A stretch of 64,000 nt of DNA from contig CAVTBU010000007.1 of assembly GCA_963733035.1 (NCBI GenBank), positions 288,001-352,000 of the forward strand, read 5' to 3'. The position numbers were made by a program. The first letter of the stretch is position 1; each line of letters starts with the position of its first letter. Shown in pieces: positions 39,601 to 48,600 of the stretch. This DNA is from Pirellulales bacterium (GTDB taxonomy: Bacteria; Planctomycetota; Planctomycetia; Pirellulales; PALSA-1355).

Positions 39601-42600
39601 GCCCATGGCGGCGGCTCGATTCTCAACATTGGCAGCGTCACGTCGGACAAACCGCTCTCGCGCGTATTTGCCTACAGCGCCTCGAAGGCCGCCGTGGTCA
39701 ACCTGACGCAAAACGTGGCCCGGGAGCTCGCCCCTAAGCAAGTCCGCGTGAACGCCATCTGCCCCGGTTTTTTTCCCGCGGAACAAAACCGGGCCATCCT
39801 CGACGAAACGCGCACCGCCAATATCATGGCTCAAACGCCAATGGCCCGATTTGGCGATCCAGAGGAACTCGTGGGCGCAACGCTGTTGTTGCTCTCAAAG
39901 AGGGCGGGCAGCTACATCACAGGTGCGGCGTATTACGTCGACGGCGGATTCACGGCCATGCGGTTCTAGCAGTCGGCCAAAATTACACCGGCGTGACGAT
40001 CTCGAGCAGCTCCACGGCCGGTTCGCCGTCGAAGTGAATGATGGCCGTGCGGCCGTAGGTAATCTGACCGGGCTGCAGGCCGAACAGCTTTCGCAGGTCT
40101 TCGCCAGGCGTGACCTTGTAGAGCCGCGTCAGGTGCACTTCGCGGAGCACATTGTGCTCGATCAGAATCCGACCAAGCGGGGTTTGTCGGCTTTCGATCT
40201 CGGCCCGCACCGAAGGATTCACACAGGCAAAGTCCAGCCGCATGATGCCGAACTGCACGATCTGGCCGTCTCCCTGCCGGGCCAGCAGAATTTTTCGGGA
40301 GTAGTGATCACCGTCGAGCCGCGATTCGAGTACGCGAACGTCGACTTTATCATTGTGAAACCGCTCGACGGTCACCGTCATGTGACTATCGTGCGCCAGC
40401 AACATGCGGTAATCGCGCTTGAGGTCGTGGGAATCGACCTCCTCGAATTGTCCCAGTTCTTCCGGCCGATCGTAAAACAGCGCGATCAGGGTATCCAGGT
40501 CGGGAGTCACGGCGTGCGAATCGCTCACGATTTTGCGGCCTCTAATCGAAACGTGGGCGGGCAGTAAAGGAGGGATTGCTTACACTGGCTCCAAACGCGT
40601 CGGGCCAATATAGTTCGGCTGCCATTAATTCTATTTCGTGGTCAACACGGACAGAAATCACCCTTACGAGGGTGTAACGATCGGCAGCTGTGCAGCGATG
40701 CCGGTCACTTCCACGTTGGTTGCCTCGCCAGGGCGGTCGAGTACCGTGTCCACCAAGTAGTATAACAACCGCCGCAGTTCGTCGGGTTCGATTTCGTCGG
40801 CCAGAGCCTCGGCCCGCTCGTGGTACTTGTCCACCAGTCGATGCGCTTTTTCGAACACGCCGGCTTTGCGGTACAGGTCGCGCACTCGCGCAAGCATTTC
40901 TGGCGTCGCCGCACTGCCAACCAGCGATTCGAGTTCCCCGCGCTCCCGCTCGTCGAGCGATTCGAGAGCCAAGGCCCAGAGCACCGTTGGCCGTCCACCC
41001 AGGATGTCGCCACCGGCGGCAAGCTTGTTGTGCGTGTCGTGTTCCCAATCGTCCAGATCGTTGAGAATCTGAAATGCCACGCCCAGCTGCTTGGCGAATT
41101 GTGCCAGCGGCTCGGCATACCGCGCGGCGTCGCCGGCCAGGCGAGCGCCGGCATACAAGGCCGCTCCGAAAGCCGGGGCTGTCTTCAGAGCGTAGATTTT
41201 CAGGGCGTCCAGCGGCGTCAGCCGCTTGTCGTGGGCGTCGCGCCAGAGTAGCTCGGCGCCTTGCCCTTCGCAGAGGCGAATGTGCGCGTCGGCCAGGTGA
41301 TTGAGGATGTCGGACACAGCGTCAGCACCGAGCGTTCCTACCTCGCGGCTCACCAGCCGATAGCCAAGGCCAATCAGGTAGTCCCCTACGTTGATCGCAG
41401 TGGGTATTCCGCAGCGGCGGTGCAGTGTCTCGTCGCCGTAGCGGAAACCGTCGTCGTCCTCGATGTCGTCGTGCACCAGGGAAGCCTTGTGAAACGTCTC
41501 GATCGATAGCGCGGTCCGCTTGATCGCGTCGGAAAATCCGGCCACATGAGCCGCACCATCGCCCAACGTGCCGTTGCCGCCCGTCAGGGCATCGTACACC
41601 GCCAGCGTCGTAAACGGCCGCGAGTGCTTGCCACCCTTGGTCAGGAAATCGTAAGCCAAGGCTTCGGTGCCAGCCAGCGGGTCAAGCCCGGCAATGCCCT
41701 TACCGTTCAATTCGGCGAGAGTCTTGTTGCTTCGCGTGCGCACCCCAAGCCGTCCCAGTTCGGCCGGTTCGAACATCTTCTCGGCGGCCCGCATCAAGTG
41801 CACGTAGCTGCGGGTTTGGACCTGGGGCTGGCGATGCTCGGTGCGGATCATCGCCGAAACCCAATCTTCGTCAACCGATGTATTGCGGCAATCGCTCGAC
41901 AATAGCGGCACGGCCATGCAGGGAATTCCGGCCAGCAGAATCTTGTCGATCGCCTTTTCGAGCACGTTTAAACAAGCGACGCCGACGATGGCGTCAACAT
42001 AACCCGATACGATAATCTTCAGCACGATGGGCGATCCCTCGGCGACGAGCACCTTGTAGCCCATCGCCTCGGCCGCGGAGCGGAAGTCGGCAATGCTGCA
42101 CGCTCCACATTTCTTGCACTCCAGGCCGAAGTCGTCGTAATCGGCCGGGCAGCCTTCGGCGTGTTTCAAACAATGCGGCAGCAAGAACAAGCGGCGGCTT
42201 GGCGGCACGGCCGCGACCTGGTCTTCCCAAAATGCCGTGACCAGCGCGACCATCGTCCAGCCGACGTAACCCTCGGGCAATCCCATCTCGTCGAGCAGCG
42301 CCCGGCCCACGGCCTCCATCTCGTCCTTCGACAGCGGGCGCGACTTGTCGAGCCGGGCCGCCACTTGGTTGGCGCGGTCGCGAATCTGTTCACGCAATTC
42401 CAGCGTCTCGGGCACGAGCTTGAGATGGCTGGTATTGCGACGACGCGACTTGCGGGGCGGAGAATCGGACTGAGCTACGGCGGTTTGCCGCTGGGGTGCA
42501 ATCGCCAAGATGCTTCTCGCTTACGGTTTGCCGGTGTGCGCGATCTTGCGAGGCACGCTGGTGGGGAGGTACTTGCGTGTCGCCTGGCCGAGCACCGAGG

Positions 42601-45600: not shown

Positions 45601-48600
45601 ACCCTGCCCGATCGTGCAGTTCGCCACCGAGTCGATCCACGATGCGCGGCCGCTACGTGAGACGTTCAATAACTCGGAATTTCTCCGCGACTTCCGACAC
45701 GCCGCCGCCAGCGCCACGCGGGGTTGCATCGTCTTGGAACGCCCCGATCTGCTTGAGGCGCTAGTCAACAAACACGGCGCCCGCGATACCACGGCCCGCA
45801 AAGCGGCCTTGGCTGAACTGGCCGCCATGCAACCGCGCGGCAGTCAGTTCGATCCCCAGCATGAGATTCCCGAACGGAGCTTCGTCTACCGCTTCGTGAA
45901 GAAGCACTTCTTCAACGACTTCGGGGCGTATGCCAACCCCGTCATGCCGGCCGGATTGGAAGTCACGACGAGACCGGAGCCGGAAGTCGTGCCGTTGCGA
46001 ACCAACTAGTTTGGCCTGCGCTACGGTTGGGCGTCGCTCGCGCGCGTGTCGTCTTCCGCCGGTCGGATGGATTCGAAGTAACGTCGAATTGTCTGGCGGT
46101 GGCCGAGCGGGATGGGCTCGGTTTCGAGGACTGCCTCGGAGGCCTTGCGAAACTTCTCGTAGCTCTCGCGGTACGAGCGGCGTGCTTGTTCGCGCCCTTC
46201 GGGCGAGGTCGTGGTTTCGACTTCCACGTCCCCTTCGTCCGACTGTTGTCCCTGGAGCCGCATTTCCTGCTTGCCGCCCAGATTCGGCGTGGCGTCGCCC
46301 GGTTCGTTGTCGCTGGAGGCCAGCCCCCAACTCTTGCCGCCGCGCTTGTTGCTCTTGCCGTCGGACTTGCATTGCGACTCGCAGTCCCCCTTGCATTCGC
46401 TTAGGCACTGGCACTGCTTGTGCAACAAATCCTGGAGTTTCTTGCGCTTGCTCTGTTTGCTGGCCTCGCCGCTAAGCTTTTTGGCGCCCTCCTTGAAGCG
46501 GCTGCCGTCGCCACCCAAGCCGGCAGAGATGTCGCCCGTGGCCTTGCTCAGGCTATGGTTGCCGGAATCTTGCATTTGCCTGGCGATCTGCTCGAGTTTT
46601 TCTTTCATTGCCTTCTCGGTCTGGCGATCGAGCTCGGGAGCTTCGGCCTTGGCCAGTTCCTCGGAAGCTTTCTCATATTGCCCGCCGGCCAGCGCCTTGC
46701 CCGCCGCGGCCAACGGTTCGGCCAGGCTCAGGGCTTCGCCCACGGCGGCTAGCTGCGCGTCGGCAACTTCCACGTTGTATTGGGCCTGCTGCTGTTGCAG
46801 GCTGGCTTCCATTTCCGAGAGCTTGGCCAGCGCCTCGCGCAAGTCAACCTCGGGCTTCTTTAGTTCCTCGATCGATTCCTTGAGCTCTGCTACTAACTCT
46901 TCAATCTCGGGATCCTGGTTCTCCTTGGCGAACTCCTCGAGCGACTGAAGTTCCTCGGTCAAACGATCGGCCTGAGCCAACACGCCGGGAAGCGGCTTGG
47001 CAGGCGTGGCACCAACTTCCACAGGACGCGTTGTTACGTACAGCACCACCGCCGCCACGATCAGGGCTGCCACGCCATAGGGCAATGCCCGCGGCACCCG
47101 AATTGGAACGACTTCGCGAGCATCAACCTGCCGGAGATGTGAAAGGGCATCGTCGACCGCCAATTGACGCACGCCGCCTGCGTCGCGTTTGGACAGAAAC
47201 TCCAAGGCCGACGTGGTGCGATCTTTCAGGCGATAGTGGCTGTCGATGGCCCGCGCTGCCGCGCGCCAGTCTCGTTGCGTGACGAAGGCAAAGAGCGCGC
47301 CCGCTACTGGTCCCGCCGATGCGACGGCGGCCGCGCGAAACGGGGTAAGTTCCCAATCGCCGAGCCAGCGCCCCAAGGCAAACCCCAGCGCGGCCACTCC
47401 ACTCCCCACCAGCCCCCAGGCTGCCAATTGCAGCGTGCGCACCTGTTGTTGACGACGCCGCACCGGATCGAGCCGGTCTTGCAAATCCTTTACCATCGGA
47501 CGTGTCCTCGTCTGGCGAGACTCGGGAACGGAAATGCGCCGCTTATTAAGCTACCACCTTGGTGGGGTATCTTGCAACAGAGCCGGCGTAGTTTTTAACC
47601 CCGGTTGATTCAACTTAGTATCGCGGAACATCAACTTCGTACGTGCTGAGGCCGTGGCGATCCACCATTCGCACCCGGCGACGTCGTCACTCTGGGCGCA
47701 TCCCGCCAGAGCTAGCCATACCGGGAGTTCGGTGCCCGAACAGGTTGCTCAAATCGATGCGTCGCAGGCCCACGTCCAGCACGAAAAGCACCACGGCTGT
47801 CCAGATTAGCCATTTCCACAACGGCGATGGTCGGCGGGCGGCGCGGTCGCTGGGTGCGAACACCTTGTCCGCCGCCAGCCCATAGACGCCACCAGAAGCC
47901 TCGGCGATACGCTTCAGTAATTCTTCATTGGTGGGGCGCAGCCGCAATTCATCGCTATAGCCGACAGCCAGGCCTGCGCGATTGTCGCGAGACCTGCTGG
48001 CCGTTTTTCGATTGCGTCAGTTCCACGTGGTAGGCGCCGGGGCGGGGCGTGTTGAACTCGGCCGTGTAGCGTCCCGGGGCGGTCTGCACGAGCGGCAGCT
48101 TATGACTGCCGAGCTGCGGATCAATGACGGTCATCTCGGTTTCGACGTCGTTCAAGTAACGACCCGTCGGATCGGCCGCGTCAAGCGTGAGCGTGGCCTT
48201 GCCGGCGCGCTGTTCGATCTCGACGACCGTGCCCTTGGCGTCACCTTTGCGCATCATGTGACGAACAACCTGGGCCCAGAACTTGGAGTAACCGGGCCAG
48301 GGAAGCCACTCGGCTGCCCAGCGGCTCTTGACGTCCGACGTGAAGGCGCCGGTCATGCCCAAACCGTATCGCCACCAAACCAACAGCGGATCGCCTTTCT
48401 CGGTGGCCAAAATCACTTCGCTAGTGGCCTTGGGCCGCGTGGCGACATATCCCAATAGAAACGGCGCGGCCTCCAGATCGATGCCGGCGAAGGCCTGCGT
48501 GGTCCGAACAACTTGCGGCACAAACGGCTGTTCGTTGATGGCGCTCTTGCTGGCGGTGACGGTTTCCTTGGCAAAGATCTGCGGCACCGCGGCCGGATCA

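Follow-up and report, generated by a model that had tools for sequence, protein, structure and literature searches.

The question raised by this locus is where an SHC-like class II terpene cyclase obtains its substrate. The window, i.e., the whole 64,000-nucleotide stretch of DNA analyzed from a Pirellulales bacterium, carries this cyclase together with a DUF116-prenyl synthase fusion, a radical SAM enzyme, and a UbiC-like protein (Table 1). The chances are about even that positions 39983-46009 encode a lipid-biosynthesis module, conserved in Planctomycetota and Verrucomicrobiota, which leads to a cyclized isoprenoid without squalene; that these genes belong together as a unit independent of squalene is highly probable.

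Table 1. Features of the cyclase locus and associated genes, numbered from the first nucleotide of the window
Feature	Position	Strand	Description
SHC-like class II terpene cyclase	42521..44392	-	623 aa; Pfam SQHop_cyclase_N + SQHop_cyclase_C
DUF116 + polyprenyl_synt fusion protein	40664..42508	-	614 aa; Pfam
DUF116 domain of fusion, residues 72-220	41849..42295	-	Pfam E 2.1e-38
polyprenyl_synt domain of fusion, residues 286-534	40907..41653	-	Pfam E 1e-40
UbiC-like protein, chorismate-lyase/UTRA fold	39983..40528	-	181 aa; AF2 model + Foldseek
Radical SAM enzyme, divergent from cyclase	44744..46009	+	421 aa; Pfam Radical_SAM
Divergent intergenic region, cyclase/radical SAM gene	44393..44743	.	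351 nt
2x[4Fe-4S] ferredoxin-type domain protein	34144..35262	+	Pfam Fer4_6
GcvH-like protein, lipoyl-Lys motif intact	33612..34058	+	Pfam GCV_H
HpnC, HpnD, and HpnE genes	21547-24958		Same window, 16 kb from cyclase locus

The cyclase stop and the fusion start are separated by 12 nt (42509-42520), and the UbiC-like gene, the last one of the operon, follows the fusion after 135 nt, also on the minus strand; it was absent from the earlier description of the locus. The length of the cyclase is counted from the ATG, the longest ORF extending to 44512, and the radical SAM ORF spans 44300-46009(+), with the ATG at 44744 as its probable start. A sigma-70-like consensus search of the intergenic region gave four sites against 1.5 expected; one of them, on the minus strand (44541-44513), is a consensus match only. 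The canonical SHC of this genome is located on contig C8, with a weak radical SAM neighbor.

The survey's finding described a cyclase with a DADDTP proton-donor motif, followed after 12 nt by a 614-aa protein with DUF116 (residues 72-220) and polyprenyl_synt (residues 286-534) domains, and both descriptions agree with the ORFs and the Pfam assignments. In an alignment with Alicyclobacillus acidocaldarius SHC (structure 1gsz), the cyclase motif D347-A-D-D-T-P falls on the DxDD, placing the acid at D347/D349/D350; the motif is intact in 56-57 of the 57 orthologues. The protein scored 112.5 bits with TIGR01507 (cut-off 431). Planctomycetota and Verrucomicrobiota together yielded 79 related cyclase loci.

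Of 59 related loci, 58 encode the DUF116 and synthase domains in a single reading frame. In the synthase domain, the first motif is FHKASLVHDDIEDDD..RYG and the second is NDLDD, with the GGKxxRPF, first DDxxD, KT, and FQ motifs all conserved. In FPP synthase, the second Arg of RRG is an IPP ligand; here, RYG replaces the usual RRG, with Y357 present in 51/51 orthologues, and NDLxD replaces the usual second DDxxD, with N483 in 48/51. Among 150 surveyed representatives, RYG was observed in 127/129 and an N-first second motif in 99/115. The survey had noted small Ala/Ser residues at positions -5/-4 of the first Asp-rich motif HKASLVHDDIEDDD, and these were found to be invariant (51/51 orthologues). 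Such residues point to a product above C20, possibly of C25-C35, and to this extent fit the long regular chain proposed before; however, the RYG and NDLxD replacements depart from canonical chain elongators, and the domain comes nowhere near any NCBIfam product-specific cut-off (best score 119.6 bits vs. 450). Because of these two replacements, the assignment as a plain long-chain regular enzyme is unproven. A passage of PMC10960109 connects the replacement of the initial D of the second motif by N with irregular coupling and with terpene synthases derived from prenyl synthases.

Seven Cys residues of DUF116 (C113, C120, C131, C134, C137, C179, and C207) reach a conservation of at least 90% in a set of 29 sequences, both fused and stand-alone. 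The eight invariant Cys reported earlier hold at this threshold for the 21 fused orthologues alone and fall to seven once the eight stand-alone proteins are added; the Cys-rich segment is absent from one orthologue (L021). The AF2 model (pLDDT 85.5) is of a generic flavodoxin/Rossmann type, and no known Fe-S protein matched it significantly in the structural comparison (best Z 6.0). The role of redox partner assigned to DUF116 finds no backing in the fold, and it is the Cys pattern that points to a putative metal or Fe-S center; these residues could bind zinc instead.

Of the 66 loci flanked by 3 kb or more, 50 have the fusion gene immediately 3' of the cyclase in the same orientation, and five more have it elsewhere in the locus. 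All five tested genomes without the fusion at the cyclase locus encode a full-length copy elsewhere. A 401-genome sample from the phylum, in which related genomes are not independent samples, contained 101 genomes with the cyclase and 158 with DUF116, the latter including all 101 with the cyclase. These observations uphold the proposal that cyclase and fusion act as one functional unit. Its independence of squalene synthesis is likewise supported: SQS_PSY (E<=1e-10) is absent from 36 of the 101 cyclase-positive genomes, none of which has a canonical SHC, and 18 of these 36 are at least 90% complete by hand count. Canonical SHC is absent from 50/101 cyclase-positive genomes, and SQS_PSY is present in 65/101.

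The radical SAM enzyme contains CxxxCxxC (C58/C62/C65), with C269, C288, and C328 also conserved. Its assignment as HpnH was rejected (TIGR03470 35.3 bits vs. cut-off 225). It had been described as a divergent gene adjoining the pair, which is correct for this genome but understates its place: orthologues (E<=1e-90) occur in 72/100 cyclase-positive and 0/75 cyclase-negative genomes, the negatives being hand-picked and not random, and the enzyme is a near-core member of the module. A frequent gene order on one strand is radical SAM, then fusion, then cyclase. The UbiC-like protein was found in 42/100 cyclase-positive and 3/75 cyclase-negative genomes. Since no match was obtained in 28/100 (radical SAM) and 58/100 (UbiC-like) cyclase-positive genomes, neither is obligatory.

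The UbiC-like protein was modeled with a pLDDT of 91.5, and Foldseek retrieved 2nwi (DUF98; E 1.5e-8) and chorismate lyase 1jd3 (E 4.5e-5). Alignment with Escherichia coli UbiC by hhalign gave a probability of 59% and E 9e-5, with R-E/K-I-L-L and TPLGR as common motifs, and no Pfam family matched, including the chorismate-lyase models. Its gene adjoins the module in 26/46 loci, and many relatives are named chorismate-pyruvate lyase by JGI. The ferredoxin-domain protein of the window, a possible electron donor, shows 53% identity to a family whose genes precede the cyclase by 3-170 nt, in the same orientation, in 23/79 loci. A GcvH-like family, whose gene travels with the ferredoxin-domain gene, precedes the cyclase by about 1.1 kb in 13/79 loci.

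Parts of this arrangement are already in print. The DUF116-polyprenyl synthetase fusion was published earlier (Makarova 2015; PMC5898192, section 3.6), so its presentation as new was overstated, and a passage of Santana-Molina 2020 (PMC7306690) places a polyprenyl synthase beside a planctomycete SHC-like cyclase. The function of the SHC-like clade is called unknown in sections of PMC7306690 and PMC12414744, which agrees with the module picture.

The altered synthase motifs admit other uses of the fusion. On the model of chrysanthemyl and presqualene diphosphate synthases, the synthase would join two allylic diphosphates non-head-to-tail via a cyclopropyl intermediate, an Fe-S center in DUF116 would give electrons for a reductive rearrangement, and the SHC-like enzyme would cyclize the resulting squalene-like hydrocarbon, making the route SQS-independent. 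We consider this unlikely, although the N-first second motif (48/51 orthologues, 99/115 representatives), the invariant Tyr at the second Arg of RRG, the redox-type Cys domain fused to the synthase, the co-transcription of a ferredoxin gene in other genomes, the module in 36/101 genomes without any SQS_PSY, and an alkene-protonating DxDD, typical for hydrocarbon substrates such as squalene, are all in its favor. The remaining IPP-site residues (GGKxxRPF and KT) are conserved, SQS_PSY in 65/101 genomes would make the route redundant unless chain lengths differ, and an Fe-S partner in prenyl coupling has no known precedent. The D-to-N change is proposed as important for irregular coupling in passages of PMC10960109 and 10.1101/169417, but in one insect enzyme treated in the former it abolished, and did not create, this activity. 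Slightly less likely still is a meroterpenoid, for which the UbiC-like protein would convert chorismate to 4-hydroxybenzoate or a related aromatic acid, a prenyl chain would be attached to this acid at the altered acceptor site of the synthase or by a UbiA-type enzyme from another locus, and the cyclase would cyclize the prenyl tail. Prenylated aromatics are substrates of MstE-type class II cyclases, according to a section of PMC12414744. The UbiC-like gene closes the operon here, as in 26/46 loci, and is enriched with the cyclase; its product has a chorismate-lyase fold, an Arg of R-E/K-I-L-L that aligns with the UbiC Arg, an identical TPLGR, and relatives bearing the JGI name. Polyprenyl_synt-fold enzymes, e.g., fungal PaxC, prenylate aromatic acceptors, and the Tyr replacing the IPP-binding Arg could fit such an acceptor. 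Against this, the profile used found no UbiC-like match in 58/100 cyclase-positive genomes, which places the protein outside the core chemistry; no UbiA-type gene was detected among neighbor families present in at least 3 of the 79 loci, the Pfam chorismate-lyase models miss the protein, and the UbiC alignment leaves the catalytic Glu in uncertain register.

Two further explanations are improbable. In one, likened to two-step diterpene synthases, a housekeeping synthase would supply the prenyl diphosphate, the SHC-like enzyme would cyclize it with the diphosphate on, and the fusion would then ionize the diphosphate off as a class I synthase. DDxxD with an N-first second motif resembles the motif pair of class I terpene synthases, and the small residues at -5/-4 widen the pocket, but the conserved GGKxxRPF and KT fit elongation better; gene order is neutral here, because cyclase-then-fusion and fusion-then-cyclase both occur. 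Insect terpene synthases derived from prenyl synthases combine a canonical first motif with NDxxD-type second motifs, as described in part of PMC10960109. In the other, the least probable of all, the genes would be neighbors by descent only, the cyclase using squalene from HpnCDE and the fusion making a chain for another purpose, e.g., a quinone side chain. HpnC, HpnD, and HpnE lie just 16 kb off in this genome and SQS_PSY is present in 65/101 cyclase genomes, but 36/101 have neither SQS_PSY nor canonical SHC, DUF116 accompanies the cyclase in 101/101, unlinked cases included, and only 12 nt separate cyclase and fusion in this genome.

We return to the module that makes a cyclized isoprenoid from a regular chain; the specific five-step scheme is tentative, with somewhat less than an even chance. 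The fusion would build the substrate chain with its C-terminal trans-prenyl synthase domain, and the acid of the cyclase DxDD, a motif observed here, would protonate the terminal double bond and fold the chain into rings. The cyclized product may then be modified by the radical SAM enzyme, as its co-occurrence suggests. The seven-Cys DUF116 with a putative metal or Fe-S center and the ferredoxin-domain protein, co-transcribed in other genomes, may provide electrons for the synthase step or the radical SAM enzyme. In this lineage, the UbiC-like protein, judging from its fold and motifs, might add an aromatic acid or handle an anionic chain end. The third step has its known counterpart in HpnH, which extends hopene, and the radical SAM enzyme would act similarly.

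The survey's finding had described a 623-aa SHC-like cyclase, a 614-aa fusion of DUF116 with a polyprenyl synthase separated from it by 12 nt, a divergent radical SAM gene and a normal squalene-hopene cyclase (SHC) elsewhere in the genome; all four, as well as the gap, were confirmed here. The radical SAM gene lies upstream of the cyclase gene. A further gene, absent from the survey's list, encodes a UbiC-like protein of 181 aa and follows the fusion gene on the same strand after a gap of 135 nt. The features considered are listed in the table. A plus-strand ORF overlapping the UbiC-like gene was rejected as a gene, being an antisense shadow with lower conservation than the frame on the minus strand. 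The 491-aa ORF facing the radical SAM gene in convergent orientation, an ORF which may not be a real gene, belongs to no Pfam or NCBIfam family and has no match in 79 related loci, and it was therefore left out of the module. The terminator scan gave 6 candidates against 4.4 expected from shuffled sequence, which is not above expectation.

Features of the SHC-like cyclase region, with related features elsewhere (window coordinates unless a contig or locus is named)
Feature	Location	Strand	Remark
Amine oxidase	21547-22959	-	squalene-synthesis cluster
SQS_PSY gene	22956-23843	-	squalene-synthesis cluster
SQS_PSY gene	23840-24958	-	squalene-synthesis cluster
LytB/IspH	24907-25944	+	divergent from the squalene-synthesis genes
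HpnCDE-type squalene-synthesis cluster (whole)	21547-25944		16 kb from the SHC-like operon
HemN-like radical SAM, GcvH-like and ~370-aa 2x[4Fe-4S] ferredoxin-domain proteins	32095-35262	+	three consecutive genes
GcvH-like and ferredoxin-domain genes of this group	33612-35262	+	~5 kb from the module, behind the HemN-like gene
ORF overlapping the UbiC-like gene	39851-40567	+	rejected
UbiC-like protein	39983-40528	-	181 aa
DUF116-synthase fusion	40664-42508	-	614 aa
SHC-like cyclase	42521-44392	-	623 aa
Radical SAM	44744-46009	+	ORF from 44300; ATG at 44744 as likely start
491-aa ORF	46021-47496	-	not part of the module
Two large VWA-domain proteins	47955-52231		one with a BatA N-terminal domain; aerotolerance-operon-type layout; unrelated to the module
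324-aa prenyltransferase alpha-alpha-toroid protein	C7:156619-157524		contig C7 of this genome, outside the window, 170 kb away
Fusion orthologue of a Bythopirellula MAG	L021:12269-12733		related locus; Cys-rich segment of DUF116 lost

Both squalene-hopene-cyclase domains (SQHop_cyclase_N and SQHop_cyclase_C) were found in the cyclase, and its D347-A-D-D-T-P motif, already pointed out by the survey, aligned with the DxDD motif (DVDD, 1gsz) of the solved A. acidocaldarius SHC. This proton-donor motif was kept in 56-57 of the 57 cyclase orthologues. Against TIGR01507, the NCBIfam equivalog model for SHC, the window cyclase scored 112.5 bits, which is below the cut-off of 431.1. The canonical SHC is encoded on contig C8 of the same genome, is 24-30% identical to the window cyclase in tblastn segments, and passes this model with 672 bits when neighbouring same-frame matches are summed. 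A search of the protein atlas with the cyclase returned its own family only.

The fusion protein comprises DUF116 (residues 72-220, E 2.1e-38) and polyprenyl_synt (residues 286-534, E 1e-40), which scored 131.7 bits against Pfam PF01976 (cut-off 25) and 140 bits against PF00348 (cut-off 27), respectively. DUF116 is present as a single gene copy in this genome. Seven Cys residues (C113, C120, C131, C134, C137, C179, and C207), including a CxxCxxC motif, were at least 90% conserved in fused and stand-alone DUF116, and an eighth, C197, was conserved only among the fused orthologues. In the Bythopirellula orthologue, the rest of the DUF116 domain and the synthase were kept, and at another related locus (L031), the synthase part alone was detectable. 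The DUF116 model (pLDDT 85.5) showed a flavodoxin/Rossmann-like sandwich with two long helices in front of it, and a wide VIA fold search against solved chains gave no match at Z of at least 8, the best (6.0) being generic Rossmann/flavodoxin folds. The model agrees with Makarova et al. 2015 (PMC5898192), who predicted a flavodoxin-like fold for DUF116, proposed an electron-transfer role and noted its fusion to a polyprenyl synthetase in Pirellula staleyi.

The synthase domain keeps GGKxxRPF, the first DDxxD, KT, and FQ, and its first motif, DDIED, was invariant in the orthologue alignment. Two departures from the usual motifs were observed: RYG in place of RRG after the first motif (51/51 orthologues) and a replaced second DDxxD, reading NDLDD here and NDLxD in the orthologues, with N first in 48 of 51. 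The signature was also checked in 150 representatives of 50%-identity clusters, where RYG was found in 127/129, A-S at positions -5/-4 in 129/129 and an N-first second motif in 99/115; 85 of the 150 reached 500 aa or more, with CxxCxxC in 59 of these 85. All four closest solved structures have RRG; position -5 is Y or F in the three that are GGPP synthases and A in the remaining one, a polyprenyl synthetase. When the synthase domain was used as a query to find closer relatives that are not fused, nearly all matches were fused orthologues or short-contig fragments.

Small residues at -5/-4 are a mark of long-chain (C30 or longer) polyprenyl diphosphate synthases, and A/S at these positions was invariant in the orthologues. 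All product-specific NCBIfam models scored far below their cut-offs. The best were those for encapsulin-cargo polyprenyl transferase, IdsA, and GGPP synthase (104-120 bits vs. cut-offs of 450-500). Short-chain/GGPP models ranked best and missed their cut-offs by a wide margin too; hexa- to octaprenyl models gave 29-70 bits against 383-500. Synthesis of a long regular chain, as the survey proposed, is thus possible but not settled, because of the RYG/NDLxD departures and the product-model scores below cut-off.

The radical SAM protein contains CxxxCxxC (C58, C62, and C65) and three conserved C-terminal Cys. Among solved structures, SPASM/twitch-type enzymes match it best (E 1e-9). Its assignment as HpnH (TIGR03470) was rejected, with 35.3 bits against a cut-off of 225 and only the Radical_SAM domain, without DUF3463, which is carried by true HpnH genes adjoining SHC in other genomes.

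No Pfam or NCBIfam family was found for the 181-aa protein, and a PDB profile search gave weak matches only. Its AlphaFold model, built from a 19-sequence alignment (pLDDT 91.5, pTM 0.87), matched the chorismate-lyase/UTRA fold in Foldseek, with 2nwi (DUF98) as the best match (E 1.5e-8, TM 0.67/0.75), followed by GntR effector domains and E. coli chorismate lyase (1jd3, E 4.5e-5, TM 0.50/0.54); 1g81 was matched as well. Profile comparison with E. coli UbiC using hhalign reached a probability of only 59% (E 9e-5). In the alignment, Y-S-R-K-I-L-L faced W-L-R-E-I-L-L of UbiC, placing R78 on the UbiC Arg, which we take to be its substrate-binding residue; T-P-L-G-R was identical, and the register of the catalytic Glu was uncertain. 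Many of the 3796 database relatives are named 'chorismate-pyruvate lyase' by JGI. At E<=10, neither PF04345 nor PF01947 matched the protein; the whole-genome search at this threshold likewise gave no PF01947 match and a single PF04345 match, on contig C5.

The synteny scan, with one genome per species, yielded 79 loci with a cyclase relative (39-77% identity), mostly from Planctomycetota, with some from Verrucomicrobiota and one from a Gemmata genome, whose orthologue (locus L087) is 49% identical to the window cyclase and has the same synteny. The DUF116 and synthase matches were located in one frame, 70-205 nt apart, in 58 of the 59 loci having both, and are therefore regarded as fused there. 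Many genomes showed the one-strand order radical SAM, fusion, cyclase. A protein of ~350 aa with a 2x[4Fe-4S] ferredoxin domain was encoded in 23 cyclase loci, in many of them 3-170 nt upstream of the cyclase on the same strand. The other recurrent families near the cyclase were radical SAM (19-22 of the 79 loci), the 324-aa prenyltransferase alpha-alpha-toroid protein (16), GcvH-like (13), glycosyltransferase (7), and 4HBT thioesterase (7). The C7 protein of this genome is 53% identical to the alpha-alpha-toroid family, which adjoins the cyclase or the fusion in those 16 loci. The window's own GcvH-like protein keeps the lipoyl-Lys motif; in other planctomycetes, GcvH-like and ferredoxin-domain genes, sometimes with a HemN-like gene too, are found directly upstream of the SHC-like cyclase.

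The cyclase, DUF116, SQS_PSY, and canonical SHC were all searched in one 401-genome sample of the phylum and were found in 101, 158, 224, and 146 genomes, respectively. SQS_PSY was not found in 36 of the 101 cyclase genomes, 18 of which are at least 90% complete by hand count, and canonical SHC was missing from 50, including all 36 without SQS_PSY. On this basis, the module is independent of known squalene synthesis. The present genome itself has SQS_PSY-family genes for squalene supply. The partner searches covered 100 cyclase-positive and 75 cyclase-negative genomes (25 with DUF116 only and 50 others), the negatives being hand-picked, not random. Radical SAM orthologues (E<=1e-90, 37-73% identity) were present in 72/100 positives and 0/75 negatives, a count that, as with the other co-occurrence figures, overstates the statistical weight because related genomes are not independent. 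Radical SAM paralogues of 32-34% identity occurred in 8 of the 25 DUF116-positive cyclase-negative genomes (G016, G027, G036, G072, G084, G097, G109, and G114) and in 0 of the 50 other negatives.

Canonical SHC without any SQS_PSY gene was observed in 23 of the 401 genomes (G032, G062, G151, G186, G235 and kin; loci L092, L104, and L105), 21 of which contain a stand-alone 147-aa DUF116; in some genera, its distance from SHC is 3.5-7 kb. HpnH is beside SHC in the three annotated loci, where the stand-alone DUF116 is part of a def-fmt-DUF116 housekeeping operon, followed by rsmB in one. An alternative squalene route via stand-alone DUF116 was set aside in view of this housekeeping context and of two families (f35 and f89) making up most cases; the link may be a lineage effect rather than evidence.

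Judged from sequence and gene context, the cyclase and the fusion, in most cases together with the radical SAM enzyme, quite probably constitute one squalene-independent pathway. More tentatively, and as a candidate scheme that may well need revision, the synthase domain of the fusion would elongate a regular chain, the cyclase would start its ring closure by protonation, and the radical SAM enzyme would tailor the cyclised product, with DUF116 and the ferredoxin as electron carriers. Position counts for the fusion were restricted to the 66 of 79 loci in which 3 kb or more of sequence follows the cyclase: DUF116 and synthase matches were directly downstream on the same strand in 50, elsewhere in the locus in 5, and absent from 11. 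Five of these 11 were followed by whole-genome search, and 5/5 encode a full-length fusion elsewhere (38-60% identity); DUF116 was present in 101/101 cyclase genomes. That the cyclase and the fusion are mere neighbours is, against these counts, highly improbable.

Other rivals concern the chemistry of the synthase domain and the nature of the product. Replacement of D by N at the start of the second motif, which is found in insect synthase-like proteins, has been proposed in passages of PMC10960109 and 10.1101/169417 to be important for irregular coupling; for one enzyme, a passage of PMC10960109 reports that a D-to-N mutation abolished irregular activity. Reductive or irregular coupling by the synthase domain, with the N-first second motif on its side, is unlikely. 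A role of the synthase domain as a class I synthase after cyclisation is very unlikely. The UbiC-like gene could supply the aromatic head of a meroterpenoid. Among the 46 related loci with sufficient flank, 26 have it beside the fusion. Its profile matched 42/100 cyclase-positive and 3/75 cyclase-negative genomes, and the window's own class has it throughout (19/19 in family f4). With over half of the cyclase-positive genomes giving no match to this profile, a meroterpenoid product is unlikely.

A bolder possibility, and a doubtful one, is that the fusion represents a novel type of prenyl-coupling enzyme, dependent on Fe-S and making a squalene-independent C30-C40 precursor by a reductive/irregular or an unusually long regular route. 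From this precursor, in Planctomycetota and Verrucomicrobiota, the cyclase and the radical SAM enzyme would produce polycyclic membrane lipids of a class not seen so far. If so, these lipids would be a candidate source of orphan polycyclic terpane biomarkers, e.g., tricyclic terpanes, which are thought to derive from regular polyprenols. The literature search revealed no gene reported for the orphan terpane source. According to passages of PMC12414744, 'SHC-like' cyclases are the only large triterpenoid-cyclase branch with unknown substrate and product. This gap constrains how cyclase evolution can be modelled and how fossil terpanes can be attributed to organisms. The present data provide a concrete minimal gene set for experiments (cyclase, DUF116-synthase fusion and radical SAM, plus the UbiC-like gene in certain lineages), show it in genomes without the squalene synthase family, and flag the synthase as not a textbook elongating enzyme. 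Should DUF116 turn out to act on a prenyl synthase in a redox capacity, this would be new enzymology and a role for a 25-year-old domain of unknown function.

Full-text literature searches, with subscription journals outside their scope, retrieved no paper naming the product of this clade, no chorismate-lyase-like or radical SAM gene tied to it, and no description of the RYG/NDLxD signature. In the searched text of PMC7306690 and PMC12414744 (figure images aside), DUF116 is unmentioned, and their passages on the clade name no radical SAM or chorismate-lyase-like partner; the Pfam domains coloured in supplementary figure S10 of PMC7306690 may nevertheless include DUF116 or the radical SAM. A figure legend of a preprint (10.1101/2025.11.21.689855) shows a cluster of DUF116, IspH, SHC, HpnH, and polyprenyl synthetase in another phylum.

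Among the known systems, the hopanoid pathway (HpnCDE, SHC, and HpnH) shares with the module a two-domain class II cyclase with the DxDD acid at the aligned position and conserved aromatic-rich pocket motifs, and the radical SAM gene accompanies the window cyclase as HpnH accompanies SHC. In contrast to that pathway, the cyclase is paired with a prenyl synthase fusion rather than with squalene synthases and also occurs in genomes without SQS_PSY (36/101). The published 'SHC-like / unknown function' clade (PMC7306690; PMC12414744) is a further counterpart. In the passages available from Santana-Molina et al. 2020 (PMC7306690), planctomycete SHC-like enzymes keep the catalytic residues, a polyprenyl synthase is usually near the gene, and a non-squalene precursor is considered likely; the window cyclase agrees in its PVC-group host, its retained residues and exactly this neighbour. 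No feature distinguishing it from the clade was found, the match being made by the published description in the supplement of PMC7306690. In the Bacillus sporulenol pathway (heptaprenyl diphosphate synthase, YtpB, and SqhC), a passage of the same paper describes an SHC homologue cyclising a non-squalene substrate derived from a regular polyprenyl diphosphate, as is proposed here; unlike that pathway, no YtpB-like gene was seen, the synthase is DUF116-fused with non-canonical motifs, and the partners are a radical SAM enzyme and a UbiC-like protein. The epoxy-polyprenyl cyclases Lon15 and AtoE, likewise class II, are presented in passages of PMC12414744 as a sister clade acting on all-head-to-tail polyprenyl chains. 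They require an epoxidised substrate, whereas the window cyclase keeps the alkene-protonating DxDD; no epoxidase was a conserved neighbour of the cyclase, a FAD-dependent oxidoreductase family occurring in only 4/79 loci. The UbiC-like protein resembles E. coli UbiC and the DUF98 protein AF1396 (PDB 2nwi) in its predicted fold and shared motifs, including TPLGR, but falls outside Pfam PF04345 and PF01947, and its gene is part of a terpenoid operon without a UbiA gene. Finally, archaeal DUF116 proteins (arCOG02078; PMC5898192) have the same Cys-rich domain with CxxCxxC and a predicted flavodoxin-like fold; they are not fused to another protein, carry N-terminal membrane helices and have genes for sulfite/nitrite reductase or ATPase beside them, whereas the domain described here forms the N-terminal half of a prenyl synthase.
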